This document shows positions 15,129 to 39,565 of a DNA stretch of 42,170 nucleotides, in pieces. The notes beneath the pieces were generated by a model that was not told the DNA's origin, made no database searches, and saw only the letters and a list, made by a program, of their open reading frames with translations. The stretch is from an uncultured Tissierellia bacterium (GTDB taxonomy: Bacteria > Bacillota > Clostridia > Tissierellales > Peptoniphilaceae). The DNA lies in assembly GCA_902489375.1 (NCBI GenBank), contig CABTZP010000001.1, forward strand, positions 1-42,170. The letters run 5' to 3'. A program made the position numbers and the translations under genes. Every line of letters begins with the position of its first letter. Position 1 is the first letter of the stretch.

Positions 15129-15263
15129 TTAAGCAGAAAGTCTCTTTCTTCCTTTTCTTCTTCTCGCGCGAAGGACTCTGCGTCCCGATTTCGTTGACAT
15201 TCTCTTCATGAAGCCATGATCATGTGCTCTTTTTCTTGTATTCGGCTGATAGGTTCTTTTCAT
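15129..15263 (-). CDS. rpmH: 50S ribosomal protein L34
   Basis: [44 protein letters not shown] (44 aa) is canonical L34. The longer track ORF (to 15347) is an upstream in-frame extension. Confidence 0.95.
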
Positions 15264-15460
15264 CTTTTCCTCCTCCTCGTGAACGTTCCCGTTCGTACAA
15301 AATTGACGAAAAAAAATAAACTCGACAGAACGAGCTTCCGGGAACACAGTTATCTAATTATAAAAAAATTGATTTTTTGTGTCAAGAAAGAAAAGCCCTT
15401 CTTTGGGGATATTCCTGAAAACCGGGAGGGGCTTGGGGATAATTATAGCGAAAGCATTTT

Positions 15461-15760
15461 TTATCCACCGTTTTCCTTCGCTTGTGATGAACTTTTTGCG
15501 AAATATGATAGAATAATAGAGCAACAGAGAGGAAAAGCGTTGGTTTGCCCTTAAATTATCCACATTTTGTGGACAGATTGTGAATAAACTTTCTTTTTCC
15601 CTCTGAAAACCCCGTTGAAAAGAGAAATTCTGTCCTTTTTCATGAAGAATTTGTAAAATTTTTGAAGGGGAAGAAAAGAAAAGTTTTTTTTGTGGATAAG
15701 TGGATAAAAGCGCTCATTCCCATAAAATCATTCTTTCAGAAGAGAAAAAGAAGTGGATAA
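15461..15760. promoter_or_regulatory. oriC left (dnaA-upstream) DnaA-box cluster
   Basis: Boxes found: TTATCCACC 15461-15469; perfect TTATCCACA 15556-15564; TGTGGACAG 15568-15576; TGTGAATAA 15579-15587; perfect TGTGGATAA 15691-15699; AGTGGATAA 15699-15707; AGTGGATAA 15752-15760. The cluster sits in the rpmH-dnaA intergenic region. Confidence 0.85.
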
Positions 15761-17293: not shown

Positions 17294-17394
17294 AGAAAAA
17301 GGAACGGGGATAAAAAGAAATCTTATCCACAAGATTATCCCCGGTCAAAAAGGCATAAAAAAAATCAGAAAGGGACTTTTCCACCCTATCCACC
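17286..17394. promoter_or_regulatory. oriC right (dnaA-dnaN) DnaA-box cluster
   Basis: One perfect TTATCCACA at 17323-17331. Degenerate boxes: GGGGATAA-type at 17285-17293 and 17305-17313, TTATCCCCG at 17335-17343, and tandem TTTTCCACC (17377-17385) plus CTATCCACC (17386-17394). Confidence 0.75.
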
Positions 17395-20107: not shown

Positions 20108-22039
20108 TTGAGAACAGAAAAAAATATGCCAGTTAAGAAGGTTAATTACGGAGAATCGAATATTCGCGTTTTGGAAGGGCTAGAGGCCGTTCGGGTTCGT
20201 CCGGGCATGTATATCGGCTCTACCGGCGAAAGGGGTCTTCACCATTTGGTTTACGAGGTGGTTGATAATTCCGTTGATGAGGCCTTAGCCGGACGGTGTG
20301 ATCACATCACCATTGAATTATTTCCGGACGGCGGCTGCCGAGTAACCGATAATGGTTCTGGAATTCCGGTTGAAATTCACCATCAGACTAAAAAATCAAC
20401 CCTGGAAACCGTGATGACCATTCTTCATGCCGGTGGAAAATTTGATTCCTCCGCCTACAAATTTTCGGGTGGCCTTCACGGTGTCGGGGTTTCCGTTGTC
20501 AATGCCTTATCCAAAAGAATGGATGTCTGGGTTCATCGGGAGGGATTTGAATTTCATCAGGCCTATGAAAAAGGAAAGGCAGTCACCGAGCTTGAAAAAG
20601 GAAAAAAAGTAAACGATACGGGCACATCCATCCTTTTTTATCCGGATGATGCGATCTTTGAAACCATTTCCTTTGATCATCAGATTTTAGCGGATCGATT
20701 CCGGGAAATTTCCTATTTAAACGCCGGCGTTCATTTTCAGCTGATTGACCATCGCAATGACTATGACGAAAGTTTTTATTCCAAGGGGGGCATTTCTGAA
20801 TTTGTCAGCTTTTTAAATCGAAATAAGGATCCTCTTTTCAGTCAGGTTCTTCATTTTGAAGGAGTTCAGGAAGAGATTCAAATTGACATCGCCTTCCAGT
20901 ATACGACAGGTTATTCTGAGCTAGTATTAGCCTTTGCCAATAATATCCTCACCCCTGAAGGGGGCACACACCTTACCGGTTTTCGATCGGCCTTAACGAA
21001 GTCACTAAATGACTATGGCCGAACCTATAACATTATGAAAGAAAAAGATGAGAATTTAACCGGGGATGATGCCCGAGAAGGTCTTACCGCCGTCGTCTGC
21101 GTCAAGCTTTCCAATCCGCAGTTTGAAGGCCAAACTAAGGCGAAACTTGGAAATTCTGAAGTTCGGGGAGCTATGGATGCCTTCTTTTCCGAGAAGATTT
21201 CGGCTTTCTTAGAAGAAAATCCAAAGATTGGAAAAACGATTCTGGAAAAGGCCCTTTCCTCTCAAAGGGCCCGGCAGGCTGCCCGAAAGGCTAGAGATCT
21301 TAGCCATAAGAAAAATATGCTCGATTCGATGACACTTCCGGGAAAGCTGGCCGATTGTCAGTCGAATAATATTGAAGAAAATGAAATCTTTCTGGTCGAG
21401 GGAGATTCCGCCGGCGGTTCAGCGAAAACGGGTCGTGACAATAAATTTCAGGCGATTCTTCCCCTGCGTGGAAAAATTTTAAATGTTGAAAAAGCTTCAA
21501 TCAATCACATCCTCTCCTATGAAGAAATTCAGGCCATGATCACCGCTTTTGGCACGGGAATTGGGGAAGCCTTTGATATTTCCAAGCTTCGCTATGGAAA
21601 AATTATCATTATGACGGATGCTGATGTGGATGGAGCCCATATCCGGACTTTGCTTTTGACTTTCTTTTATCGGTATCTGAAACCGCTCATTGACGGAGGT
21701 CATATTTATATTGCCCAGCCCCCTCTTTACCGGGTAGTCAAAGGAAAGAAAGAAAGGTATGCCTATGATGAAAAAGAATTGGAAAAAGTCACGGCCGGCC
21801 TTCCAAAAGATTCCTACAAGATTAACCGGTATAAGGGTCTTGGAGAAATGAATGATGATCAGTTATGGGAGACAACGATGAATCCGGACCATCGTTTGCT
21901 TCTTCAGGTTTATGAAGATCCTGAATCAACAACCACCGATGACACCTTTTCCCTGCTCATGGGCGATAAAGTTCCTCCTCGAAGAGAATTCATCGTGACA
22001 AACGCCAAGCTTGCGGAAAATATTGATACGATTGGTTAA
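20108..22039 (+). CDS. gyrB: DNA gyrase subunit B
   Basis: LEGLEAVRVRPGMYIG, a GHKL ATPase N-box (EVVDNSVDEA), Toprim EGDSAGG and PLRGKILNVE. The start is either TTG 20108 or ATG 20126. Confidence 0.95.
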   Translation: MRTEKNMPVKKVNYGESNIRVLEGLEAVRVRPGMYIGSTGERGLHHLVYEVVDNSVDEALAGRCDHITIELFPDGGCRVTDNGSGIPVEIHHQTKKSTLETVMTILHAGGKFDSSAYKFSGGLHGVGVSVVNALSKRMDVWVHREGFEFHQAYEKGKAVTELEKGKKVNDTGTSILFYPDDAIFETISFDHQILADRFREISYLNAGVHFQLIDHRNDYDESFYSKGGISEFVSFLNRNKDPLFSQVLHFEGVQEEIQIDIAFQYTTGYSELVLAFANNILTPEGGTHLTGFRSALTKSLNDYGRTYNIMKEKDENLTGDDAREGLTAVVCVKLSNPQFEGQTKAKLGNSEVRGAMDAFFSEKISAFLEENPKIGKTILEKALSSQRARQAARKARDLSHKKNMLDSMTLPGKLADCQSNNIEENEIFLVEGDSAGGSAKTGRDNKFQAILPLRGKILNVEKASINHILSYEEIQAMITAFGTGIGEAFDISKLRYGKIIIMTDADVDGAHIRTLLLTFFYRYLKPLIDGGHIYIAQPPLYRVVKGKKERYAYDEKELEKVTAGLPKDSYKINRYKGLGEMNDDQLWETTMNPDHRLLLQVYEDPESTTTDDTFSLLMGDKVPPRREFIVTNAKLAENIDTIG

Positions 22040-22050
22040 GGAAGAGACCT

Positions 22051-24513
22051 ATGACAGAAGAAACAAAAAGAAACGATATTTTACCCATTGACCTGGAAAA
22101 GGTCATGAAAAGTTCCTATCTGGACTATTCAATGTCGGTTATCATTGGCCGAGCCTTACCGGACGTACGGGACGGATTAAAGCCGGTTCACCGAAGAATC
22201 CTCTATGGAATGAGTCAGTTGGGCTTGACAGCAGATAAACCCTACCGAAAATCCGCTCGATTGGTCGGTGATGTTATGGGCCGCTTTCATCCCCACGGCG
22301 ATTCTGCGATTTATGATGCTGTTGCCCGGCTTGCCCAGCCCTTTAATACTCGCTATCTTTTGGCGGATGGTCAGGGAAACTTCGGTTCTATTGATGGGGA
22401 CCGGCCGGCCGCGATGCGGTATACAGAAGTGCGAATGACCCGCTTAGCCCAGGAGATGCTTCGGGACATCAATAAAAATACAGTTGATTTTCAGCCCAAC
22501 TTTGATGAAGAAGAGCTGGAGCCAGTCGTTTTACCGGCTCGTTTCCCGAATCTTTTAGTCAACGGATCGGCAGGCATTGCCGTCGGCATGGCAACGAACA
22601 TGGCCCCTCATAATCTTGGGGAAACCATCGATGCCTGTATTGCCTATATGAAAGACCCCGACTGCTCCACAGAAAAACTAATGACTTATCTACCCGGGCC
22701 GGATTTTCCGACCGGAGCCCAAATCATGGGAAAAAGCGAGATCAAAAAAGCCTATGAGACGGGAAAGGGAAAATTAAAATTACGAGCGGTCGCGAGAATT
22801 GAAGAAAGTAAAAATCGTTATCGGATTGTCATTAGCGAAATTCCTTATCAGGTCAATAAAGCCAAGCTCATAACGGATATCGCGAAACTGGTCCGGGAGA
22901 AAAGATTGGAAGGCATTTCGGATGTCCGCGATGATACCAACCGGACAGGAATGCGGATTATTGTCGAGTTAAAAAGAGATGCCATTCCGAAAGTGGTTTT
23001 AAATAACCTCTATAAAAACACCCAAATGGAGACAACTTTTGGGATTATTAACCTTGCCCTGGTAGATGGTCAGCCTAAAATTCTTTCTTTAAAGGACCTG
23101 ATTCGCTATTACGTTTCCCATCAGGAAGAGGTTGTGACAAGAAGAACTCAGTATGACCTGGAAAAGGCAGAAGCCCGTGCCCATATCATTGAAGGCCTAA
23201 AAATTGCCCTGGATCATATCGATGAAATTATCCGCATCATCCGCTCTTCCTATGACAGTGATGAAATCAAGAAGATATTTCTTGAAAAATTCGGTCTGGA
23301 TGATCTTCAGTCTCAGGCGATTTTGGATATGCAGTTAAAGCGGCTTTCCGGCTTGGAAAGAGAAAAATTGGATGAAGAATATGAAGAGCTTCTTAAGAAA
23401 ATCGCTCGTTTCCGGGAAATTCTTTCTTCGAAAAGAGTGCTCTATCAGGCTATTGAGCAGGAGATGGAAGAAATCAAAGAAAAATATGGAGATGAACGAA
23501 GAACGAAGATCATGCCGGCGGTGGATGAGCTTTCCATTGAAGATTTGATCAAAGAAGAGGCGATCGTCATTTCTATGACCCAGAAGGGATACATCAAAAG
23601 AACCCCGGTCAGTGAATATAAGGTTCAGCGAAGGGGCGGAAAGGGAATCCGGGGAATGACGACCCAGGAAGATGATTATGTGAAGCATCTTTTTGTCGTC
23701 TCTTCCCATGACACGATCTTATTCTTTACGAACTTTGGGACGGCGTATCATCTTAATGCTTATGAGATTCCGGAAGGTTCTCGGACGGCAAAGGGTCAAA
23801 ATATCATCAATCTCTTGCAGCTGGAGCCGGAGGAGAGGGTTGAGGCCATGTTCCCGGTCAAGGAAGATGACAGGGATGAAAATTCTTATTTTGTCATGGT
23901 CACAGCCCAGGGAATTCTCAAAAAGACCGCAGTCAGCCTCTTTAAAAACATCCATGCCAAGGGCATTCGGGCGATTCGTCTGGCCGAGGGCGATGAACTT
24001 CGCCTGGTCCGCATAGGCCGGGAAGAGGATGAGGTTTTCATGGTCACCAAACTGGGCATGGCCATCCACTTTAGCCTAAAGGATATTCGTCCCATCAGCC
24101 GAGATGCGATGGGGGTAAAAGGAATCCGCTTGGATCTAAAAGATCAGGTAATTGATACGGATATTGTTGGCGATAATGAATATGTCCTTTGTGTTACCGA
24201 ATCGGGTTACGGAAAAAAGACCCATATCGATCAGTATAACTTGCAAAATCGTGGAGGAAAGGGCTTAATTACCTATAGGATCACGAAAAAAACAGGACCT
24301 TTAATTGCGGCCTGTCTGGTCAGAGAAGACGATGAAGTTCTTTTGATGAGCCAAAATAATGTCCTGATTCGGCTTAACGTCCAGGATATTTCGACGATCG
24401 GCCGATCAACCCAAGGGGTTAAGCTCAAAGAAGTTGTCAATGAAAGCGACCGGGTAGTCGCTGTTGCAAAATACATTGAAGAGCTGGACGAAGAAAATAA
24501 GGAGAACCAATAA
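22051..24513 (+). CDS. gyrA: DNA gyrase subunit A
   Basis: DGLKPVHRRILY, the QRDR region HPHGDSAIYD, the active-site AAMRYTE, and a C-terminal beta-pinwheel with a GyrA-box-like QRRGGKG. Confidence 0.95.
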   Translation: MTEETKRNDILPIDLEKVMKSSYLDYSMSVIIGRALPDVRDGLKPVHRRILYGMSQLGLTADKPYRKSARLVGDVMGRFHPHGDSAIYDAVARLAQPFNTRYLLADGQGNFGSIDGDRPAAMRYTEVRMTRLAQEMLRDINKNTVDFQPNFDEEELEPVVLPARFPNLLVNGSAGIAVGMATNMAPHNLGETIDACIAYMKDPDCSTEKLMTYLPGPDFPTGAQIMGKSEIKKAYETGKGKLKLRAVARIEESKNRYRIVISEIPYQVNKAKLITDIAKLVREKRLEGISDVRDDTNRTGMRIIVELKRDAIPKVVLNNLYKNTQMETTFGIINLALVDGQPKILSLKDLIRYYVSHQEEVVTRRTQYDLEKAEARAHIIEGLKIALDHIDEIIRIIRSSYDSDEIKKIFLEKFGLDDLQSQAILDMQLKRLSGLEREKLDEEYEELLKKIARFREILSSKRVLYQAIEQEMEEIKEKYGDERRTKIMPAVDELSIEDLIKEEAIVISMTQKGYIKRTPVSEYKVQRRGGKGIRGMTTQEDDYVKHLFVVSSHDTILFFTNFGTAYHLNAYEIPEGSRTAKGQNIINLLQLEPEERVEAMFPVKEDDRDENSYFVMVTAQGILKKTAVSLFKNIHAKGIRAIRLAEGDELRLVRIGREEDEVFMVTKLGMAIHFSLKDIRPISRDAMGVKGIRLDLKDQVIDTDIVGDNEYVLCVTESGYGKKTHIDQYNLQNRGGKGLITYRITKKTGPLIAACLVREDDEVLLMSQNNVLIRLNVQDISTIGRSTQGVKLKEVVNESDRVVAVAKYIEELDEENKENQ

Positions 24514-24522
24514 GGAGGATCT

Positions 24523-24849
24523 ATGTCTTTTCATATGAAATTGGAACAAACAGAGGAGAAGATCCTCGTGATTTTGGAGGGTGATCTGGATATCAACTCT
24601 TCGCCGGAACTAAAAGAAGCAGTGATCAGGGCTTTTGAAAAATCGCCAAAAGAAATTGTTTTTGATTTTTCCCAGTTGGACTATTTGGATTCAACGGGCT
24701 TAGGGGCTTTAATGGCGATCTTTAAAGTGGCAAAAAAAGAGGGCTATTCCCTTCGCATTCGCAATGCGAAGAAAAATGTCCGAAAACTTTTTACGATTAC
24801 CGAACTAGATAAGGAATTTATCATGGAGGATCCGGATGCAGACCGTTAA
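24523..24849 (+). CDS. STAS-domain anti-sigma-factor antagonist (RsbV/SpoIIAA-like)
   Basis: 108 aa. DYLDSTGLGALM matches the RsbV phospho-serine motif (YMDSTGLG). It starts 9 nt after the gyrA stop, with an AAGGAGGA RBS. Confidence 0.85.
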   Translation: MSFHMKLEQTEEKILVILEGDLDINSSPELKEAVIRAFEKSPKEIVFDFSQLDYLDSTGLGALMAIFKVAKKEGYSLRIRNAKKNVRKLFTITELDKEFIMEDPDADR

Positions 24850-25171
24850 ATTGACGATTCCTTCTCAGCCTGAATATGTGACTACCCTTCGCCTGGTTAC
24901 CGCATCCCTGGCAAGGGGGATGGACTTTGATTATGAAGCCGTGGAAGATTTACGGGTTTGCGTTTCAGAGCTGGTGAATTACCTTTTACCTTTTAATGAG
25001 AAACTCAAAGTGATTTTCGAAGAAGAAAAGGACTGCATGAAAATTCGAATCAAAGCGGAAATGAAAGACGAAAAAAGTTCAGCCGCCCAAATGAGTCGGA
25101 TGATCCTGGAAAGTTTAATGGATGAAGTTTCTCGCGGCAAGGATGGCATTTATCTGGTAAAACACCGCTAA
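24836..25171 (+). CDS. Truncated RsbW/SpoIIAB-like anti-sigma factor lacking kinase G-boxes
   Basis: 111 aa. The N-terminal half IPSQPEYVTTLRLVTASLARGMDFDYEAVEDLRVCVSELVNYL aligns closely with B. subtilis RsbW as I recall it ([44 protein letters not shown]). The C-terminal ILESLMDEV aligns with RsbW LMETLMDEV. The G1 motif (DEG) reads AEMKD, the G2 motif (GGLGL) reads AAQMSRM, and roughly 35-50 aa of the ATP-lid region are missing. Confidence 0.7.
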   Translation: MQTVKLTIPSQPEYVTTLRLVTASLARGMDFDYEAVEDLRVCVSELVNYLLPFNEKLKVIFEEEKDCMKIRIKAEMKDEKSSAAQMSRMILESLMDEVSRGKDGIYLVKHR

Positions 25172-25181
25172 AGGAGATGGC

Positions 25182-26006
25182 ATGGCCAAGGCAAAAAAGA
25201 AAAAAACCGAAAAGCAGGAGAAAAAAGCGACGGAAGAAGCTGAATTTCTTGAGCTGAGAAAAACAGGCGACCCAAAGCTGAGAAATAAGATCATCACCGA
25301 TCATCTCTATATTGCGGAAATTTTGGCAAAGAAATACCTGAACCGGGGCATCGAATATGATGATCTTTTTCAGGTTGCCTCAATTGGTCTGATTTATGCG
25401 GTCGATCGCTATGATGTCAGCAAGGGCTATGCTTTTTCTTCTTTTGCAACGCCGACCATCATCGGAGAAATCAAGAGACATTTTCGAGACAAGGGCTGGG
25501 TGATCCGGGTACCGCGCAGAATTCAGGAACTTTCAAAAAAAATCAATCTGGCGCGAAATATTCTTTCCCAGGAACTTCAAAGACAGCCTACCGTAGATGA
25601 TATTGCCGAATATCTCAATGTCTCTGTAGAAGAAGTTCTGGAAGCGATGGAGGCTTCTCAGGTTTATTCTCCCCAATCCCTGGACAAGTCCTTTGACCTG
25701 GGTGCGGATGATCGGGAAATGAGTTTGGCCGATGTTCTGGGTCAAGAAGATGAAGGCTTCGAAGACATTGATTTTTATGACGTCGTTGAAAAACTAACGG
25801 GTCATCTTAATGATCTCGAAAAGAAAATTTTTTACTACCGGTATTACGATAAAAGAACCCAGATTTCCATTGCTGAGGAACTCAATGTTTCTCAGATGAC
25901 GGTATCGCGCATTGAAAAAAAGATCATTCAAAAGTTTCGCGATGCCCTAAATATCAGTCCGAAGGATTTAAAAAAATCCAAATCAAAGACTCATTTGACG
26001 AGCTAA
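25182..26006 (+). CDS. Group-3 sigma-70 family factor, SigB/SigF/SigG subfamily (most SigB-like)
   Basis: Region 2 reads [58 protein letters not shown]. Region 3 reads [22 protein letters not shown]. Region 4 reads [21 protein letters not shown]. The closest match I recall is B. subtilis SigB ([30 protein letters not shown]). Confidence 0.85.
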   Translation: [274 protein letters not shown]

Positions 26007-26075: not shown

Positions 26076-27257
26076 ATGGACCGTACGGAAATGGAAAAAC
26101 GAGAATGGCAAGATCTTTTTGATTCCAGTGGGAAAGTGATCGGAAAACAGCAAAGGGGAGACCGAGTTCCTGACGGGGCCTTTACGAAACTGGTTTCCAT
26201 TTTCACCTTTAACAATCGGGGCGAGGTCCTTTTGACGAAAAGAGCCGAGACGAAAACCTTTGGCTTGCTTTGGGAAAATACAGCAGGAGCCTGCCTTTCC
26301 GGAGAAACGCAAAGAGAAGGCGCACTCAGGGAACTCAGGGAAGAAACGGGCATTTGCGCCAAGGACGAGGAGCTAATTGAACTCGGCCGTTTCGAAACCC
26401 CCTCCCGTCATGCCTGGATGTACGGCTTTTTTGTCAATAAAGAAATTCCCATTGAGCAGATTGTCCTTCAGCCCGGAGAAACGATTGATGCGAAATGGGT
26501 TCCTTTTGACATTGGCCTTACCTATGATGATGGCTTAGCCTGGCCGGTTCGCTACCGCTTTGTCTATTTTTGGAAGCAGCTGGAAACCTATTTTCATGCG
26601 GAAAATCATCTTTCTCCTTGGCTTGATTGGGCGCAAAATCTTCAATTTTGGGCCCAGCAAGGGCAGGCTTACACCAAAAGTCGTTTTGATAAGGATCGGT
26701 ATGATCATATTTCAAAAACCGCTTCAGAAATGTTGGCCTACAAAACCGGCATTTCAACAGAAAAGGTATTAGGCCTTTTCGCCTCTGAAAAAGGCTATCA
26801 AACGCCAAAGATTGAATGCCGGGCGGCCGTCTTTCATGAAGACCGTATTTTATTGGTGCAGGAAGCCAGCAATTATCTTTGGTCGATGCCCGGAGGCTGG
26901 TGTGATATTGGCATTTCGCTAAAAGAAAATTTAGAAAAAGAAGTCTTTGAAGAGGCGGGCCTGAAAGGAAAAGCAGGAAAACTGGTGGCCATTGAAAACC
27001 GATCTTATCATCAATACAAGCCCATTCCTTATGAAATTTACAAGTGCTATATGATCTGCCATGTCGATCAGATAGGGCCAATCAAAGAGGGGATCGAACA
27101 AGTCCCTGGTTTTCAGGGAAATTTAGAAACGCTGGGCGCAGCGTTTTTTCCCTTGGACCGACTTCCTCCTCTTTCTACCGGGCGGGTCAACGAGGATGCC
27201 ATTCGGATGTGCTATGAAGCCAGCGAAGATCCGAACTGGATCCCCCGTGTGGATTAA
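26076..27257 (+). CDS. Tandem Nudix hydrolase fusion (Nudix + Nudix_N_2-like helical domain + second Nudix)
   Basis: The first Nudix box is GACLSGETQREGALRELREETGI. The central segment WLDWAQNLQFWAQQGQAYTKSRFDKDRY resembles the N-terminal helical domain of ADP-ribose-pyrophosphatase-type Nudix proteins. The second box is GGWCDIGISLKENLEKEVFEEAGL. Confidence 0.75.
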   Translation: MDRTEMEKREWQDLFDSSGKVIGKQQRGDRVPDGAFTKLVSIFTFNNRGEVLLTKRAETKTFGLLWENTAGACLSGETQREGALRELREETGICAKDEELIELGRFETPSRHAWMYGFFVNKEIPIEQIVLQPGETIDAKWVPFDIGLTYDDGLAWPVRYRFVYFWKQLETYFHAENHLSPWLDWAQNLQFWAQQGQAYTKSRFDKDRYDHISKTASEMLAYKTGISTEKVLGLFASEKGYQTPKIECRAAVFHEDRILLVQEASNYLWSMPGGWCDIGISLKENLEKEVFEEAGLKGKAGKLVAIENRSYHQYKPIPYEIYKCYMICHVDQIGPIKEGIEQVPGFQGNLETLGAAFFPLDRLPPLSTGRVNEDAIRMCYEASEDPNWIPRVD

Positions 27258-27343
27258 AAAGACAAGGAGACCATGAAAAAAGGATCATCGCATGGAAAGA
27301 CTTCGTTTTTCTATGCTTTTTTATTCATTATCAGGAGACAGGT

Positions 27344-29299
27344 ATGAAAAACAAAAAGCAAAACCAATCTCCCTCCTCCCTTTCCCATTTGGATAAAAGG
27401 AAGGTGGGCGCGTTAATCGGCGTGATTGTCCTTGCCACGGTTCTGCTTATCGTATATATTACGCGAGATACAGGCCAGCGGCTTGTTGAAATCACCGATG
27501 ATTCGGAATCAATGGAAAACCAGATTTCCGAAGGGCCGGAAGACGAGGAAGAAACGGTTGCTCTTATTCGCAGCGATGAGGATTTTTCCTTTTCTTTTTC
27601 AGAAAAAGAAAAAGAGGAAAGTTCTTTCGGGGGGGAGATGTCAAAGGAACTTCCGCCCAAAGAAAATCCCCCTGAGAAAGGAGAAAAAGCAGGAAGAAAA
27701 GAAGGACCCTTCTATCAGCCGGAAATTCTCAAAGAGCCGCCTCAGGTAGAAACGGAAATTTCTGTCCGTCCGGCAAAGGAGCCATCCGAAGAGGAAAGCC
27801 TCGAAAATCATCCTGGCTCTTTTCCCCAAGAAAGCGCAGATGATAATCGGGGGCCTTCTGAAAAGCGTCAGCAAATTGAAGGGATGGCCTTCGGCCAGCA
27901 AATTTTAAAGGCTTCCCCCTATGACCGGCAGAAAATGGGCAATGCCCCGGTCTTTTTCTACCAGCATCCCAACCAGTCTATGGGCATTGACCTTCGCGCC
28001 GAACCGGAAAAGGCTTCAAGTCTTTATGTTCTGCCCACGGAAAAGGGCTTTGTGATCATGGACCGGCATTTGATGGCTTTAAATCACTGGTCAGAAGAAG
28101 ACATTCGACAAAATCTGCTCAAAGGAAAGGTTGTTGCGGGCCTGGTGGATGTGCGGCTGGTTTCTGAAAAAGAAGCTGAGGAGATGAAGAAAGATTCAAA
28201 ACTGGAAAGTCTTATCGAAGAGAAAGGAAAGGGCCAGGTTTTCGTTTTTTCCCGGGCAAAGGAAAATGCCTGGATGATGGATTCCCTTCTTACTCAGCTT
28301 GGAGAACAGGCGATTGATCTTTCCTTTGTACAAAATATTCTTTCTCCCGATGGACTGATCGGAAGGATTGATCCGCCAAAAGGAGAAGATCCGGAAAAAG
28401 AATTTTCTGCCCTGCAAAAAGAGCTTCAGTCTGATCCGGCAAAGGTTGAGTGGCTCTATCAATTGCCTTTGTATGGACCCGGAAATTACAAAGTGGGAGG
28501 TAGAGATCTTCGCCGTGATATCCCGGAAAGGGCCCCGGTTTATCAGTGCGGGGTCGCGGACCTTAATGGGGACGGGTATCCAGAGTATGTGATTCATGCC
28601 AGCCTGAGCCAGGAGAAAAAATCGGGCCTTCAGGGATATTACGCCATTTTAACTCCATCCCCAACGGGCCTGATCACAACAGAAGTGATTTATCATGGAA
28701 ATGGCCCCTTAATAAAAAATGGGAAGACCCTTTTAACGGCCTCTCAGTCGGAAAAAGAGGGAACAAAAATCCTTCAAATTGCCCAGAATCCTTATCCTCC
28801 CGAGGGCCAGGGCTGGATTCCAGCGGAGGTGCATTTTCTTCAGCCCCAGGGGCTGGGAAAGAGTCTGACCGGAAAAGAATTGGCCCGGCTTTACCCGGAT
28901 CACTATCTTGTTCCCCATGAGGGGACCCTTTATCTGGTTCCTCTCGCGGATTACGATATGCTTATGGATTTTGCTTTAAATAGGCTTTCTGGCGGAACCG
29001 AGGTCTTCCTTAAAGACGCGGATGATCCCCAGCAGGTTCCGGCTTTTCGCATTAAGGACCCGGCAGCCTATCTGGCCCAAAAATTTCCGGACCTTCCTTT
29101 CAGTCAGGAAGATTGGTCCAAGGCTCAACCGGCGGGAATGTTTCGAGCTGATCCCATGCCGATTACCATTGAAGACCTCGTTTCGGGAAAGGGGAAGGGG
29201 AAGGGTGTAGACCAGAAAAACGAAAATAAAAATCCATCTCCGGCCTATCCGCTTCCGGACGATCCGATGAATCCCGCGATAAAACAGGAGAAAAAATGA
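27344..29299 (+). CDS. Hypothetical single-pass membrane protein with acidic linker and large extracytoplasmic domain
   Basis: 651 aa. An N-terminal TM helix (GALIGVIVLATVLLIVYI) is followed by about 150 aa of D/E/S/P-rich low complexity and then a globular region. That region contains one FG-GAP/VCBS-like calcium-loop motif, ADLNGDGYPEYVI. I recognise no family. AGGAGA RBS. The stop overlaps the next gene's start (ATGA). Confidence 0.6.
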   Translation: MKNKKQNQSPSSLSHLDKRKVGALIGVIVLATVLLIVYITRDTGQRLVEITDDSESMENQISEGPEDEEETVALIRSDEDFSFSFSEKEKEESSFGGEMSKELPPKENPPEKGEKAGRKEGPFYQPEILKEPPQVETEISVRPAKEPSEEESLENHPGSFPQESADDNRGPSEKRQQIEGMAFGQQILKASPYDRQKMGNAPVFFYQHPNQSMGIDLRAEPEKASSLYVLPTEKGFVIMDRHLMALNHWSEEDIRQNLLKGKVVAGLVDVRLVSEKEAEEMKKDSKLESLIEEKGKGQVFVFSRAKENAWMMDSLLTQLGEQAIDLSFVQNILSPDGLIGRIDPPKGEDPEKEFSALQKELQSDPAKVEWLYQLPLYGPGNYKVGGRDLRRDIPERAPVYQCGVADLNGDGYPEYVIHASLSQEKKSGLQGYYAILTPSPTGLITTEVIYHGNGPLIKNGKTLLTASQSEKEGTKILQIAQNPYPPEGQGWIPAEVHFLQPQGLGKSLTGKELARLYPDHYLVPHEGTLYLVPLADYDMLMDFALNRLSGGTEVFLKDADDPQQVPAFRIKDPAAYLAQKFPDLPFSQEDWSKAQPAGMFRADPMPITIEDLVSGKGKGKGVDQKNENKNPSPAYPLPDDPMNPAIKQEKK

Positions 29300-33431: not shown

Positions 33432-34643
33432 ATGAAAAGACCAGAAAAACCTTCGCAAAAAGAAAGAGTACAAAAGGGAAACGCTCAAGAGGAAATTTCT
33501 CCGGAAAAAGAAAAAAAGCCGCTCTCGGATCAAAAAGGTCCGTTAAATCGGCGGGCCTTTCTTTTGGGCCTTTTTCTCTTCGCCCTGATTGGCTTGATTT
33601 ATTATAGTACAAGGTCAACCAACCCGGACTCCCCCTTGCGGATTGCTGAAAAAGCTTCCCTGTCTCCCCAGGAAGGGTGGACTTCGATCGGCTCCTGCGG
33701 AACGAATTTTTATTATGTGAAGGATCACAAACTCCATGGCCTTCAGGCAAACGGAAGGGAGCTTTTCACCTGGGATTTGGGAGAAGAGGGCAAGGTTTCT
33801 TATGGACGGGAAATCGCGGTTTTAAAGCCAAATTTTTCCCTTTGTCTTTTGGATCCGCAGACCGGGGAGGTAAAAAAGGAAATTTCGGCGCCAGAAAGTT
33901 TGGATCTTTGCGCCACCCCGCGGGGAAAGTCCTCTTATGCTGTTTTTTTTAAAGATAAGATTCGCCTGTACGATTCGAAACTCAAGGTTGTCGGGGAAAT
34001 TTTAGATCTTCAGGATCCCTTCCGTCTGGCCGTTCAAGACCAAGGCGAGGCCTGGCTGGAACAAGGCCCCACGACCATGAAAGAAGTGCGTTCCCAAGAT
34101 GAGGGAACGGTTTTTTGGGATGAGGGCATCGCTCCTCTTCCGGCTTTCTGGCCGAGTCGATCGTACTTAGGCTTGAAGGATGAGAAAAAAACGTCGGGCC
34201 TTCCCTCGCAAAGACCCTATCTCGATGTTCTTCCCCTGGGCCAGGGAGCTTTTGTTGCCCTTACCCGCCAGGACCTTTTGATTATAAAGAATCACCAGCT
34301 GCTTCAACGCTATCCCCTTCAGGATCCCCGTTCCTGGGACAGCGGCTTTTTGTTTGTCGTTTTAGATGGGGACAAGGTTCGTCGCTTTACTGAAGAGGGA
34401 AAAGAGCTTCCGCCTCCTTCCCTATCCTTTACGCCCAAAGAGGTCAAAATTGGGAAAGAGGCCTGTTTTGCCTTTGGAGAGGGGACCTTTGCCCGGATTG
34501 GGGAAAGCACAGAGGAAAAACCTTTAAAATTAGACGAAAAGCTTTCTGATCCTTTTGTACGGGGATCCGGGCGGCTTGAGGTCTTTACCGATCAGGGGCT
34601 CATGAATTTGGATACGGCAAAGGCTCCACAGGGCACTTTTTAA
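33432..34643 (+). CDS. Hypothetical single-pass membrane protein, probably with a beta-rich extracytoplasmic domain
   Basis: 403 aa. A K/E-rich cytoplasmic N-terminus is followed by a TM helix (AFLLGLFLFALIGLIYY) and then a ~330-aa domain with repeated short beta-strand-like segments. I recognise no motif with confidence. The start is 7 nt after the preceding stop. Confidence 0.55.
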   Translation: MKRPEKPSQKERVQKGNAQEEISPEKEKKPLSDQKGPLNRRAFLLGLFLFALIGLIYYSTRSTNPDSPLRIAEKASLSPQEGWTSIGSCGTNFYYVKDHKLHGLQANGRELFTWDLGEEGKVSYGREIAVLKPNFSLCLLDPQTGEVKKEISAPESLDLCATPRGKSSYAVFFKDKIRLYDSKLKVVGEILDLQDPFRLAVQDQGEAWLEQGPTTMKEVRSQDEGTVFWDEGIAPLPAFWPSRSYLGLKDEKKTSGLPSQRPYLDVLPLGQGAFVALTRQDLLIIKNHQLLQRYPLQDPRSWDSGFLFVVLDGDKVRRFTEEGKELPPPSLSFTPKEVKIGKEACFAFGEGTFARIGESTEEKPLKLDEKLSDPFVRGSGRLEVFTDQGLMNLDTAKAPQGTF

Positions 34644-37250: not shown

Positions 37251-37754
37251 CTACCGGCGGAGAAAGTCCGCCCGGCCCGGTTCGGTCGCCGGAATTTCAT
37301 AACCGGCTTTTTGCATTTCATGAAGTTTCATCAGCAAGAGGTGAATATCGACATTTAAGATCTGGGCGATACCGACCACATCATATCCGTCTCGAGCCAG
37401 CTGTTCAATCTCTTTTTCCTCTAACAGCAAATGACAGGCAAAAAGATTCGCTTCATATTCGGTCCGGGAGCTGGCCGAAAAAAGGGTAAACGGGACAAGG
37501 TCAGCGATGCCCTCAGAAGGCCGGTGCAAAAGGGCATGGCCCAATTCATGGGCAAGAACCGTTCGCCGCTCCTGATCACCCATATTGGCATTGAGAAAAA
37601 TACAGGACCTTCCTTCAATCACGGCATACATTCCCAAGAGATTCTCGAAATCCGACCGGTTATACAAAGAAATTGACAGGGCGGAAACCAGCTCTTCCGG
37701 GTCGGAAGTCTTATACTGATCTTTCAGCCCTTGCACCATTTCTTTCATATTCAT
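37251..37754 (-). CDS. ImmA/IrrE-family (M78/DUF955) metallopeptidase
   Basis: HEXXH motif in VLAHELGHALLH, with a downstream EYEANLFACHLLL block typical of ImmA/IrrE proteases. The start overlaps the stop of the XRE gene (TAATG). Confidence 0.85.
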   Translation of the reverse strand: MNMKEMVQGLKDQYKTSDPEELVSALSISLYNRSDFENLLGMYAVIEGRSCIFLNANMGDQERRTVLAHELGHALLHRPSEGIADLVPFTLFSASSRTEYEANLFACHLLLEEKEIEQLARDGYDVVGIAQILNVDIHLLLMKLHEMQKAGYEIPATEPGRADFLRR

Positions 37755-38143
37755 TAAAATTTCTCCCGGCGGCCGTCCCAGTAGGCATCTTCCAGGGCTT
37801 TCATGACAGCATCCTTATCCCGGCTGGAAAGCTTGCCTCCGGAAAACATGGCCTGGGCCTGCCGAATCAGAGTCTCGGCCTGGATTTTCCCGTCTTCCTT
37901 TTCCCACATCGCATGCATCTCTTCTTCTTCATTCTCAACGAACAGGTAATTGAGGCGGACATGGAAAAGCTCTGCCATTTTTTCATAGGTTTCCCGGCTT
38001 TTGGGATAGGACTGGCCGGATTCATAGGAACCGACCGTTCGGGTGGATACGCCGATTTTTTCTCCCAGAGCGCGTTGGGTCAAACCGGCCTTTTTTCTCA
38101 GCGCTTTGATTTTTTCTGCAAAGGTCACAGGATCCTCCTTCAT
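37754..38143 (-). CDS. XRE-family helix-turn-helix transcriptional regulator (ImmR-like)
   Basis: HTH_3 region FAEKIKALRKKAGLTQRALGEKIGVSTRTVGSYESG. The C-terminal helical domain FSGGKLSSRDKDAVMKALEDAYW is common in ImmA-partnered repressors. The likely start is ATG 38143 (nearly leaderless); the track start at 38218 would run into the promoter/operator region. Confidence 0.85.
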   Translation of the reverse strand: MKEDPVTFAEKIKALRKKAGLTQRALGEKIGVSTRTVGSYESGQSYPKSRETYEKMAELFHVRLNYLFVENEEEEMHAMWEKEDGKIQAETLIRQAQAMFSGGKLSSRDKDAVMKALEDAYWDGRREKF

Positions 38144-38158
38144 GGTCGCAAAATCAAG

Positions 38159-38187
38159 AAGATAAAGTTCTTGTTTCTTCTTGACAA
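38159..38187 (-). promoter_or_regulatory. Candidate divergent promoter for the XRE-ImmA operon
   Basis: The minus strand reads TTGTCA (38182-38187), a 17-nt spacer, then TATCTT (38159-38164). Its -35 overlaps the -35 of the plus-strand promoter. Its -10 lies inside operator copy A. The predicted start is a few nt from ATG 38143. Confidence 0.4.
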
Positions 38188-38209
38188 AGGAAGATAAACT
38201 TCCTATACT
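38181..38209 (+). promoter_or_regulatory. Near-consensus sigma-A promoter reading toward the Y-family polymerase gene
   Basis: TTGACA (38181-38186), a 17-nt spacer, then TATACT (38204-38209). The spacer is entirely occupied by operator copy B. Copies C and D lie just downstream of the predicted transcription start. Confidence 0.65.
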
Positions 38210-38314
38210 GATATCCAAGAGGGGAAAGAAGAAGTTTATCTTCTTGAAGTTTACTTCTTTTTGAGGGAACTGTCAAAAGGAAAAGCGGGGGTGGGAGCAG
38301 AAAGAGAGAAGGAA

Positions 38315-39565
38315 ATGAAAAAAACCATCCTTCATGCCGATATGAATTCTTGTTACGTCTCCATTGAACAAGCTCGTCATCCCGAGTTAAAAGGAAAGGC
38401 GGTAGCGGTTGGCGGGTCAGAAAAAGATCGAAATGGGATTATTTTAGCCAAGTCAATTGAGGCGAAGGCCCAGGGAGTAAAGACCGGCGAGGTCATCTGG
38501 CAGGCCAAAGGCAAATGTCCGAACCTGATGATTCTTCCCGCTGATTTTGCGCTGTATCTGACCTATTCGAAGCTGGCTCATGCGATTTACCGGGAATACA
38601 CGGATCGGATTGAACCCTTTGGCATTGATGAATGCTGGCTGGATGTTACCGAAAGTCAGAAGCTTTTTGGAAATGGAGATGTGATTGCTGAGGAGCTGAG
38701 AAGAAGATTTCGAGAAGAGCTGGACATCACTATCTCGGTGGGAATTTCTGACAATAAAATATTTGCGAAACTCGGCAGCGATTATAAAAAGCCGGATGCG
38801 CAAACGAGAATTGATTTGGAAAATTATCAGAAAATTGCCTGGCCTCTTCCGGTAGAAGATCTGCTTTATTGCGGGCCAAGGACAAGGAAAAAGCTTCATC
38901 GCATGGGGGTGATGACAATAGGGAATCTGGCAAAGACGGACCCTTCCTTTATTCAAAAGTTTCTTGGCGTAAATGGCCTTCGCCTTTGGATTGCCGCCAA
39001 TGGAAGGGATGATACGCCGGTTGCCCGGGAAGATTTTGTCCCCCCGATCAAGTCCATCGGCTGTGGAACAACCTTTCGAAGAGATCTTAGAAATGATAAG
39101 GAAGTAAAAGGGGGACTGATTGCTTTGGCCCAGGAGCTGGAAAAAAAGCTGATCGAGAAAAAATTTTCCGGAAAAAGCCTCCACCTTTCCGTTCGAGACG
39201 GCCTGCTGGCTTATCAGGAGGCCAAAATGAACCTGGCCTATCCAGTACAAAATGCCAGCGAGCTTGCCGAAAGTGGCTTTTCTCTTTTTTGCCAGACTTG
39301 GACCTGGAAGCATCCGGTTCGGGCGATGACCCTAAGGGTCAGTGACCTTTTTCCCGAACAAACGGCCGTTCAAAGGGCCTTTTTTCCTGATTTTTTACGG
39401 CATGAAAAAAAAGAGAGATTAGGGAAAACAATTCATGAACTTCAAAAGCGATACGGCCCGCAATCGGTCCAGCCTGCGGTTATGAAAGATTTTCACCAGG
39501 CCGATCTTTTACGGCCCCGGGCGACCATGCCGTCAAATTGCTTTTCCGCGCTTCGAAAAGCCTGA
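38315..39565 (+). CDS. dinB: Y-family DNA polymerase (DinB/Pol IV-like)
   Basis: The N-terminus ILHADMNSCYVSIEQ (catalytic Asp), FGIDECWLDVT and SVGISDNKIFAKLGSDYKKPD are Y-family palm motifs. ATG 38315 is preferred over the TTG at 38261. Confidence 0.85.
   Translation: MKKTILHADMNSCYVSIEQARHPELKGKAVAVGGSEKDRNGIILAKSIEAKAQGVKTGEVIWQAKGKCPNLMILPADFALYLTYSKLAHAIYREYTDRIEPFGIDECWLDVTESQKLFGNGDVIAEELRRRFREELDITISVGISDNKIFAKLGSDYKKPDAQTRIDLENYQKIAWPLPVEDLLYCGPRTRKKLHRMGVMTIGNLAKTDPSFIQKFLGVNGLRLWIAANGRDDTPVAREDFVPPIKSIGCGTTFRRDLRNDKEVKGGLIALAQELEKKLIEKKFSGKSLHLSVRDGLLAYQEAKMNLAYPVQNASELAESGFSLFCQTWTWKHPVRAMTLRVSDLFPEQTAVQRAFFPDFLRHEKKERLGKTIHELQKRYGPQSVQPAVMKDFHQADLLRPRATMPSNCFSALRKA

Follow-up and report, generated by a model that had tools for sequence, protein, structure and literature searches.

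A 111-residue RsbW-type protein, predicted to be a pseudokinase anti-sigma factor, encoded behind gyrBA in the Tissierellia

Gene organization at the locus

We analysed 42,170 nucleotides (nt) of DNA from an uncultured Tissierellia bacterium of the family Peptoniphilaceae (contig CABTZP010000001.1, positions 1 to 42,170, forward strand; hereafter the window). The focus is an open reading frame (ORF) at 24836..25171 on the plus strand, which starts with ATG and encodes a 111-residue protein of a minimal RsbW type, predicted to be kinase-dead. The evidence makes it probable that this protein is a functional anti-sigma factor turned pseudokinase, encoded in a translationally coupled STAS/anti-sigma/SigB-like operon behind gyrBA.

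All genes of the operon lie on the plus strand. The first gene of the probable transcription unit is gyrB (20108..22039), assigned from its translation; the syntenic gene of related loci carries HATPase_c, DNA_gyraseB and Toprim domains. The next gene, gyrA (22051..24513), ends 9 nt before the STAS gene (24523..24849). The 108-residue product of the latter is an anti-sigma-factor antagonist of the RsbV/SpoIIAA type (Pfam STAS, E = 1.6e-19; TIGR00377, 78.5 bits, above the cut-off of 53.45) and aligns to Bacillus subtilis RsbV (6m36_B, E = 2e-13). The start of the anti-sigma ORF overlaps the end of the STAS gene by 14 nt, with the Shine-Dalgarno sequence GGAGGA 6 nt 5' of the start codon, and a gap of 10 nt separates its stop codon from the sigma factor gene (25182..26006). 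The 274-residue sigma factor belongs to the SigB/SigF/SigG family (TIGR02980, 266.1 bits, above the cut-off of 234.35), and Pfam finds sigma-70 regions 2, 3 and 4 all present. Scores for the individual equivalogs are below cut-off (SigB, 201 versus 315; SigF, 188.5 versus 321; SigG, 142–157 versus 372–457). The N-terminus of the sigma factor (25182-25260) forms a Lys-rich tail (MAKAKKKKTEKQEKKATEE...) before region 2, and Peptoniphilaceae orthologues have similar basic tails.

Homology and predicted fold

Profile searches place the 111-residue protein near RsbW. The NCBIfam RsbW model PRK04069 aligns residues 2–109 to profile positions 6–121 of 161 (E = 8e-12), with 44.8 bits against a cut-off of 145. 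Pfam HATPase_c_2 (PF13581) covers residues 8–48 only (E = 2.6e-5; 24.6 bits versus a gathering score of 27.4), and the NCBIfam SpoIIAB model residues 3–48 only. TIGR01924 and TIGR01925 give 38.9 bits (cut-off 155) and 22.3 bits (cut-off 135), respectively. A phmmer search of the PDB aligned B. subtilis RsbW over residues 4–51 (E = 1e-7) and Mycobacterium tuberculosis RsbW/UsfX over residues 2–104 (E = 7e-4). Homology to RsbW is thus far above chance, yet under the family cut-offs.

An AlphaFold2 (AF2) model, built with 15 family members in the alignment, is confident (predicted local distance difference test, 93.9; predicted template modelling score, 0.86). Its elements are a strand (2–9), two helices (13–28 and 33–53), two strands (56–63 and 67–73), a loop (74–81), a helix (82–94) and two final strands (97–101 and 104–110). 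When the model was compared with the PDB using Foldseek, B. subtilis RsbW (6m36/6m37) ranked first (E = 3e-10), with a template modelling (TM) score of 0.83 normalized to the query and of up to 0.90 normalized to the target. UsfX of M. tuberculosis (8ih8/8jzt) and SpoIIAB (1th8/1tid/1l0o) followed. Matches to RsbW, UsfX and SpoIIAB all had probability 1.00 and query-normalized TM scores of 0.72–0.86 (0.78–0.86 for UsfX). The target-normalized value of 0.90 comes from RsbW chains with only 98–115 modelled residues, so the 111-residue protein corresponds approximately to the modelled RsbW core. The predicted structure confirms an RsbW/SpoIIAB-type Bergerat α/β fold. The first-pass annotation had described an RsbW-like ORF at 24836-25171 that keeps the N-terminal, partner-binding half and the last helix, and had proposed profile and structural comparison with SpoIIAB and RsbW; both the coordinates and the family assignment hold up against the profile, fold and comparative evidence.

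Loss of the ATP-binding elements

We aligned the protein to B. subtilis RsbW and SpoIIAB, with residue numbering that agrees with the PDB match and with published RsbW residues (PMC7340262). RsbW-type kinases are recognized here by the N-box E-x-x-x-N-x-x-x-H, the G1 box D-x-G-x-G, the ATP lid and the G2 box G-x-x-G-x-G, none of which is present in the 111-residue protein. The vestigial G1 box (25055..25069, plus strand) reads A74-E-M-K-D, in place of D-E-G-x-G in RsbW, and Ala74, at the position of the adenine-binding Asp, is invariant in the 15-sequence family alignment. The vestigial G2 box (25082..25102, plus strand) reads A83-A-Q-M-S-R-M, in place of G-G-L-G-L-Y-L. What is left of the N-box (24968..24994, plus strand) reads E45-L-V-N48-Y-L-L-P-F, in which Glu45 remains but the His does not; N48, the Asn, is shifted one position early, leaving Tyr49 at the Mg-binding Asn position.

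In the AF2 model, only residues 74–81 (25055..25078, plus strand) join strand 67–73 to helix 82–94, which indicates that the lid has been deleted. This 8-residue loop replaces both G1 and the lid, and the shortfall in the lid is about 20 residues when counted against the RsbW sequence. The first-pass annotation had reported the G1 and G2 substitutions, the missing N-box His and the lid deletion, and the alignments and model bear out all four; the shift of the N-box Asn goes beyond its description. Judged by these motifs, the protein appears to have lost every element needed for ATP binding and is predicted to be a pseudokinase. A protein unable to bind ATP would also be unable to phosphorylate its STAS antagonist.

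Conservation of the short form

A word-indexed search of 5.8 billion proteins returned 14 homologues, all 109–117 residues long and 51–98% identical. When one genome per species was scanned, 23 loci showed an identical ORF structure; these come from Kallipyga, Khoudiadiopia, Murdochiella, Levyella, Gallicola, uncultured Peptoniphilaceae and Tissierellia, and one metagenome-assembled genome (MAG) of the Christensenellaceae. The nearest genome is an uncultured Tissierellia MAG (83% identity). Comparison of the window gene with its closest relative (locus L003) gives a ratio of nonsynonymous to synonymous substitution rates (dN/dS) of 0.06 (dN 0.087, dS 1.45), and the short anti-sigma gene is under purifying selection.

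A family profile searched with HMMER against 1.84 billion representatives gave 2321 matches at E ≤ 1e-3, 195 of them at E ≤ 1e-10, with a median length of 120 residues among the best 150. By regular expression, both D-x-G-x-G and a G2-like motif are missing from 147 of 164 database proteins, mostly matches to the family profile. A further profile search identified relatives of 121–125 residues in Keratinibaculum, Schnuerera/[Clostridium] ultunense, Sporanaerobacter, Anaerosalibacter and Tissierella, in which E-x-x-x-N is kept and a single G2 Gly is left, while the His, G1 and the lid are gone. Short, motif-less proteins nevertheless carry database names such as 'serine/threonine-protein kinase RsbW', 'ATP-binding protein' and 'histidine kinase' (P0008, P0180, P0184, P0199, P0220, P0233 and P0244). 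With the ATP-binding elements absent, these kinase and ATP-binding annotations are probably wrong, and any reconstruction of pathways in the organisms concerned would mislead if it presumed a partner switch able to reset itself.

Linkage to gyrA and the transcription unit

The order gyrB-gyrA-STAS-short anti-sigma-sigma was found in every Peptoniphilaceae or Tissierellia locus inspected; distant relatives and two complete Tissierellia genomes were among these. The segment from gyrA to the sigma gene was seen in Kallipyga, Khoudiadiopia, Murdochiella, Levyella, Gallicola, Keratinibaculum and Tissierella. Across 109 related loci, gyrA lies directly 5' of the STAS gene in 49. Among these 49, the anti-sigma protein is degenerate in 39 (110–134 residues), canonical in nine, with N, G1 and G2 boxes (132–144 residues), and partial in one. 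One caveat here is that motif classes for the 109 loci were set by simple regular expressions; the 'partial' class has soft boundaries, and the counts are no more than indicative.

A canonical gyrA-linked RsbW is nearest to proteins from Clostridia/Bacillota MAGs, followed by the anti-sigma-B factor RsbW of Bacilli (40–45% identity). Since other Bacillota have a kinase-competent RsbW at this gyrA-linked position, loss of the kinase in place is the most likely origin of the short form. The Tissierellia module is probably the counterpart of the clostridial SigB operon. Outside the gyrA-linked set, many loci from soil and peat metagenomes (L051–L100) encode RsbW-like proteins of 130–140 residues in which G1 is gone and a G2-like motif is kept. 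The 'partial' class comprises 26 loci, in which the gene still lies between a STAS gene (DSTGLG) and a sigma gene. Erosion of kinase motifs in RsbW homologues seems to be widespread outside the Bacillota too.

A consensus scan found no terminator-like hairpin in the 9-nt gap between gyrA and the STAS gene, which suggests that the module is co-transcribed with the gyrase genes. The best such hairpin, a 12-pair stem followed by a T run (27290..27316, plus strand), is the first strong stem after gyrB; two weak consensus matches occur inside the anti-sigma ORF. Upstream of the hairpin and probably last in the unit is a gene for a 393-residue double-NUDIX hydrolase (26076..27257, plus strand; two NUDIX domains and Nudix_N in Pfam). 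No terminator separates it from the sigma gene, and the two may be co-expressed. Its synteny is confined to Peptoniphilaceae loci (L003–L018) and does not extend to other Tissierellia. Neither of two sigma-B promoter consensus sequences is enriched in the window: the B. subtilis-like GTTT-N-GGGWAW has 3 matches (5.5 expected), and the Clostridioides difficile WGWTT-N13-17-KGGTWA has none (2.2 expected).

Interface with the STAS antagonist and proposed mechanism

In the B. subtilis complex, RsbW residues Arg23, Asp42, Lys44/Ser48, Glu49 and Tyr118 form hydrogen bonds with RsbV Asp23, Arg84/Arg87, Tyr53, Ser56 and Ile91 (PMC7340262). Glu49 directly contacts the phospho-acceptor Ser56, and RsbV Glu21 supplies the clash that expels SigB (PMC7340262). 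By alignment offset, the RsbW docking residues map to Arg19, Asp38, Arg40, Ser44 and Glu45 of the anti-sigma protein, and their RsbV partners to Asp23, Lys88 (for Arg87), Tyr54, Ser57, Ile92 and Asp21 of the STAS protein. All are invariant or nearly so in the family; Arg19, the equivalent of the RsbW Arg23 that bonds RsbV Asp23, is invariant in alignments A1, A2 and A3 (codon 24890..24892, plus strand). Two interface positions differ, with Met89 equivalent to Tyr118 and Asn85 to Arg84. The elements used for dimerization, strand 1 and helix 1, are also present. From this pattern of conservation, we infer that the 111-residue protein is still a sigma-sequestering partner that the STAS protein can displace.

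The scheme we infer comprises sigma binding, dimerization, displacement by the STAS protein and a kinase acting in trans. A dimer of the anti-sigma factor would sequester the adjacent SigB/F/G-family sigma factor. Unphosphorylated STAS protein would dock through the pairs Arg19-Asp23, Asp38-Lys88, Arg40/Ser44-Tyr54 and Glu45-Ser57 (anti-sigma residue first) and would expel the sigma factor by steric and electrostatic clash involving STAS Asp21. Unable to phosphorylate the STAS protein, the anti-sigma factor could not reset the switch itself. Instead, a kinase and a PP2C phosphatase with genes elsewhere in the genome would phosphorylate and dephosphorylate Ser57, on the pattern of the RsbW1/RsbW2/RsfB system of Mycobacterium smegmatis.

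Source of the switch input

The Ser57 codon of the STAS gene (24691..24693, plus strand) is equivalent to that of the RsbV phospho-acceptor Ser56 by alignment to 6m36_B, and the surrounding motif reads D56-S57-T58-G-L-G. This Ser is kept in all 44 loci that have a degenerate anti-sigma factor, as D-S-x-G-L-G in 43 and D-S-T-A-L-G in one. In M. smegmatis, kinase-dead RsbW1 is bound by the S63A variant of the antagonist RsfB as well as by wild-type RsfB, but not by the S63E variant (PMC7693655). Since the Ser is dispensable for binding in RsfB, the best explanation for its strict retention in the STAS proteins is that it still serves as a phospho-acceptor. In the same organism, the anti-SigF factor RsbW1 has no kinase activity, and RsfB is phosphorylated solely by RsbW2, a separate protein whose motifs are intact (PMC7693655). 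Among the possible inputs we tentatively favour a trans-acting kinase and phosphatase operating on Ser57, ahead of a stoichiometric or transcriptional switch and of a STAS protein that senses a ligand or redox state.

Two statements of the first-pass annotation bear on this point. It held that something other than the anti-sigma factor's own phosphorylating activity must feed the switch, a view that follows from the motif loss and matches the RsbW1/RsbW2 arrangement (PMC7693655). It had also singled out DSTGLG in the STAS partner. The motif is there, but canonical and degenerate systems keep it equally and it is not distinctive by itself; its retention is informative only because Ser-to-Ala substitution leaves binding to a kinase-dead RsbW unimpaired.

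Several observations weigh against the overall picture of a kinase-dead anti-sigma factor whose antagonist is phosphorylated in trans. The 111-residue protein falls short of the curated thresholds for Pfam HATPase_c_2 and for NCBIfam RsbW, and STAS/anti-sigma docking is a prediction from residue conservation. The STAS Ser is just as invariant beside canonical RsbW, and its retention could reflect a structural role (helix capping, the contact with Glu45) rather than phosphorylation. Finally, Pfam searches of 29 further ORFs in the 42-kb window found neither another HATPase_c_2 protein nor a PP2C nor an additional STAS gene, and none of these was seen among the genes called in seven related loci (6–10 kb flanks).

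The missing enzymes fit a switch that works independently of phosphorylation, which we regard as a realistic possibility, less probable than a trans-acting kinase. Sigma activity would then be set by the relative amounts or stabilities of the STAS, anti-sigma and sigma proteins. Possible levers would be regulated proteolysis, translational coupling or co-transcription with gyrBA, which is sensitive to supercoiling and, being close to the origin, present at high gene dosage; the STAS Ser would serve structure and docking only. The short gyrA-STAS gap without a terminator and the strongly conserved gyrA linkage are consistent with such a switch. So is the equivalent of the Glu45-Ser contact, which belongs to the RsbV-RsbW docking interface. 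The C. difficile sigB operon, moreover, is reported to be driven by sigma-A only, with no autoregulation (PMC10210984). On the other hand, three genes at a fixed ratio offer no obvious signal input, and although Ser-to-Ala substitution is tolerated for RsfB binding, none of the 44 loci has lost the Ser. It is doubtful, in our estimate, that the gyrA-linked module works throughout the Tissierellia as a phosphorylation-free partner switch on a pseudokinase scaffold of 110–125 residues, coupling the sigma factor to supercoiling or to gene dosage at the origin. If true, a supercoiling- or dosage-coupled switch of this kind would follow a regulatory logic that has yet to be described for any RsbW-type system.

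Alternatively, the STAS protein could itself be the sensor, with a small ligand or another modification (e.g. redox) setting its affinity for the kinase-dead anti-sigma factor. M. tuberculosis provides a precedent in RsfA, which is redox-controlled and acts on the kinase-dead UsfX/RsbW1 (PMC7693655), and the absence of enzymes from the neighbourhood fits as well. However, the STAS protein of the window has no cysteine. It looks like a plain single-domain protein of the RsbV/SpoIIAA type, without additional domains or conserved pocket residues that stand out, and we consider a sensory role unlikely.

Very unlikely is a role for the 111-residue protein as a decoy or modulator, which would form heterodimers with a full-length RsbW encoded elsewhere or titrate the STAS protein and would not itself be the anti-sigma factor. 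RsbW3 of M. smegmatis, a kinase-less RsbW homologue, does bind RsbW1 rather than SigF (PMC7693655). Against this, the 111-residue gene fills the canonical middle slot of a V-W-sigma operon, only 10 nt from the sigma gene. Canonical gyrA-linked operons have their sole RsbW at this position, and a second RsbW was seen in none of the inspected loci.

Some pseudokinases of other families bind nucleotide despite missing motifs, which counts in favour of a protein that still binds ATP and phosphorylates the STAS protein through a non-canonical site. UsfX of M. tuberculosis has also been reported to phosphorylate a model substrate (PMC1847690). Yet the adenine-binding Asp is replaced by the invariant Ala and the Mg-binding Asn by Tyr, the G1 and G2 glycines are all absent and an 8-residue loop stands in place of the lid. 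M. smegmatis RsbW1, 66% identical to UsfX, lacks kinase activity on RsfB. Residual kinase activity of this sort is highly improbable.

Nothing was found in favour of a sequencing or assembly artefact or a decaying RsbW pseudogene, explanations practically ruled out by the 109–125-residue length kept in hundreds of proteins and dozens of independent genomes, the dN/dS of 0.06, the strong Shine-Dalgarno sequence, the tight coupling to neighbouring genes and the confident, compact AF2 fold. A frameshift that restores a full HATPase_c domain, which the first-pass annotation had raised against its own reading, is likewise excluded by the homologue lengths, the 23 loci and the dN/dS.

Comparison with known partner switches

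The closest functional parallel is offered by M. smegmatis RsbW1 (MSMEG_1803) and M. tuberculosis UsfX (Rv3287c). Like these, the window protein has an RsbW fold, lacks the N, G1 and G2 kinase motifs and is encoded beside a SigB/F-family sigma gene. RsbW1 groups with kinase-negative anti-sigma factors, and the conserved Ser of its antagonist still controls binding (PMC7693655). The mycobacterial proteins differ in length (138–145 versus 111 residues) and phylum. Their operon contains no STAS gene, the STAS gene lying elsewhere beside the kinase, whereas the operon described here includes the STAS gene and has no kinase in its vicinity. Sequence similarity to the mycobacterial protein is weak (E = 7e-4), and kinase-competent RsbW proteins fill the gyrA-linked slot of other Bacillota; the kinase was probably lost independently in the two groups.

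With the RsbV-RsbW-SigB system of B. subtilis (6m36/6m37), the module shares the V-W-sigma gene order, the docking residues and the best structural match. B. subtilis RsbW is longer (160 residues), has N, G1 and G2 boxes and an ATP lid, and phosphorylates RsbV on Ser56; the window protein is without these elements. Unlike in B. subtilis, no PP2C of the RsbU/RsbP type was found in the neighbourhood of the module. The SpoIIAA-SpoIIAB-SigF system of Bacillus (1th8, 1tid, 1l0o) has the same fold and three-gene logic, but SpoIIAB is an ATP-dependent kinase of 146 residues. The module also occurs in spore-forming Tissierellia genera, which presumably have a spoIIA operon of their own, and it is therefore probably not a sporulation switch.

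The C. difficile sigB operon (rsbV-rsbW-sigB), which also lies just downstream of gyrA, is a clostridial partner switch of the SigB type. It is transcribed from the sigma-A promoter mentioned above, without autoregulation, and the PP2C phosphatase RsbZ is encoded away from it (PMC10210984). The RsbW of C. difficile is described as an active kinase (PMC10210984), in contrast to the window protein.

Kinase-negative RsbW anti-sigma factors are already known from mycobacteria, and degenerate forms are common in databases. Our literature searches found no work on RsbW in the Tissierellia and nothing relevant on degenerate or pseudokinase anti-sigma factors. What is new here is the degree of reduction (111 residues, with the lid deleted and the Asp replaced by an invariant Ala), apparently the lineage (class Tissierellia of the Bacillota), the retention of the STAS gene in an operon with no kinase nearby, and the conserved attachment to gyrBA at the origin. 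Loss of the RsbW kinase is thus not confined to mycobacteria; it recurs in the Bacillota, where it has become fixed in an entire class whose anaerobic members come mostly from gut, clinical and digester sources. At 109–125 residues, about the ordered core of RsbW crystals, these proteins represent the smallest natural RsbW-type anti-sigma scaffold and should be useful for separating binding from kinase function in GHKL anti-sigma factors. The invariant STAS Ser, kept with no cognate kinase nearby, also raises the testable question of which enzyme, if any, phosphorylates Ser57.

The origin region and other features of the window

Genes of the window are arranged in the order parB, parA, gidB, gidA, mnmE, jag, yidC, rnpA, a DnaA-box cluster, dnaA, dnaN, recF, gyrB and gyrA, followed by the three-gene module, the double-NUDIX gene and a gene for a 651-residue protein. 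Seven DnaA-box-like sites (TTATCCACA, up to one mismatch) lie at 15434-15760, 5' of dnaA, and a further site lies at 17323-17331, between dnaA and dnaN; the whole window contains 16 matches (7.3 expected). Cumulative GC skew reaches its minimum at about 16–18 kb. The DnaA-box cluster and the skew minimum together indicate that the window spans the replication origin, and the STAS/anti-sigma/sigma operon is located about 9 kb from oriC, directly behind gyrBA. By synteny with locus L002, rpmH is expected on the minus strand between rnpA and dnaA. A 112-residue ORF in this intergenic/oriC region (15216-15554) is probably not a gene; it has no Pfam match at E ≤ 1e-5, nor do the ORFs at 134-850 (238 residues) and 33432-34643 (403 residues).

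The 651-residue ORF downstream of the unit (27344-29299) also has no Pfam match. Read by eye, it has an apparent hydrophobic N-terminal segment followed by an acidic, Ser-rich region of low complexity. Its position is occupied in loci L001, L002 and L006 by a 577-residue protein without Pfam matches. Further along, at 37251-39565, minus-strand genes for an M78 peptidase of the ImmA/IrrE type and an XRE-family helix-turn-helix repressor are divergent from a gene for a Y-family (impB/umuC-like) DNA polymerase, an arrangement that looks like a damage-inducible module.

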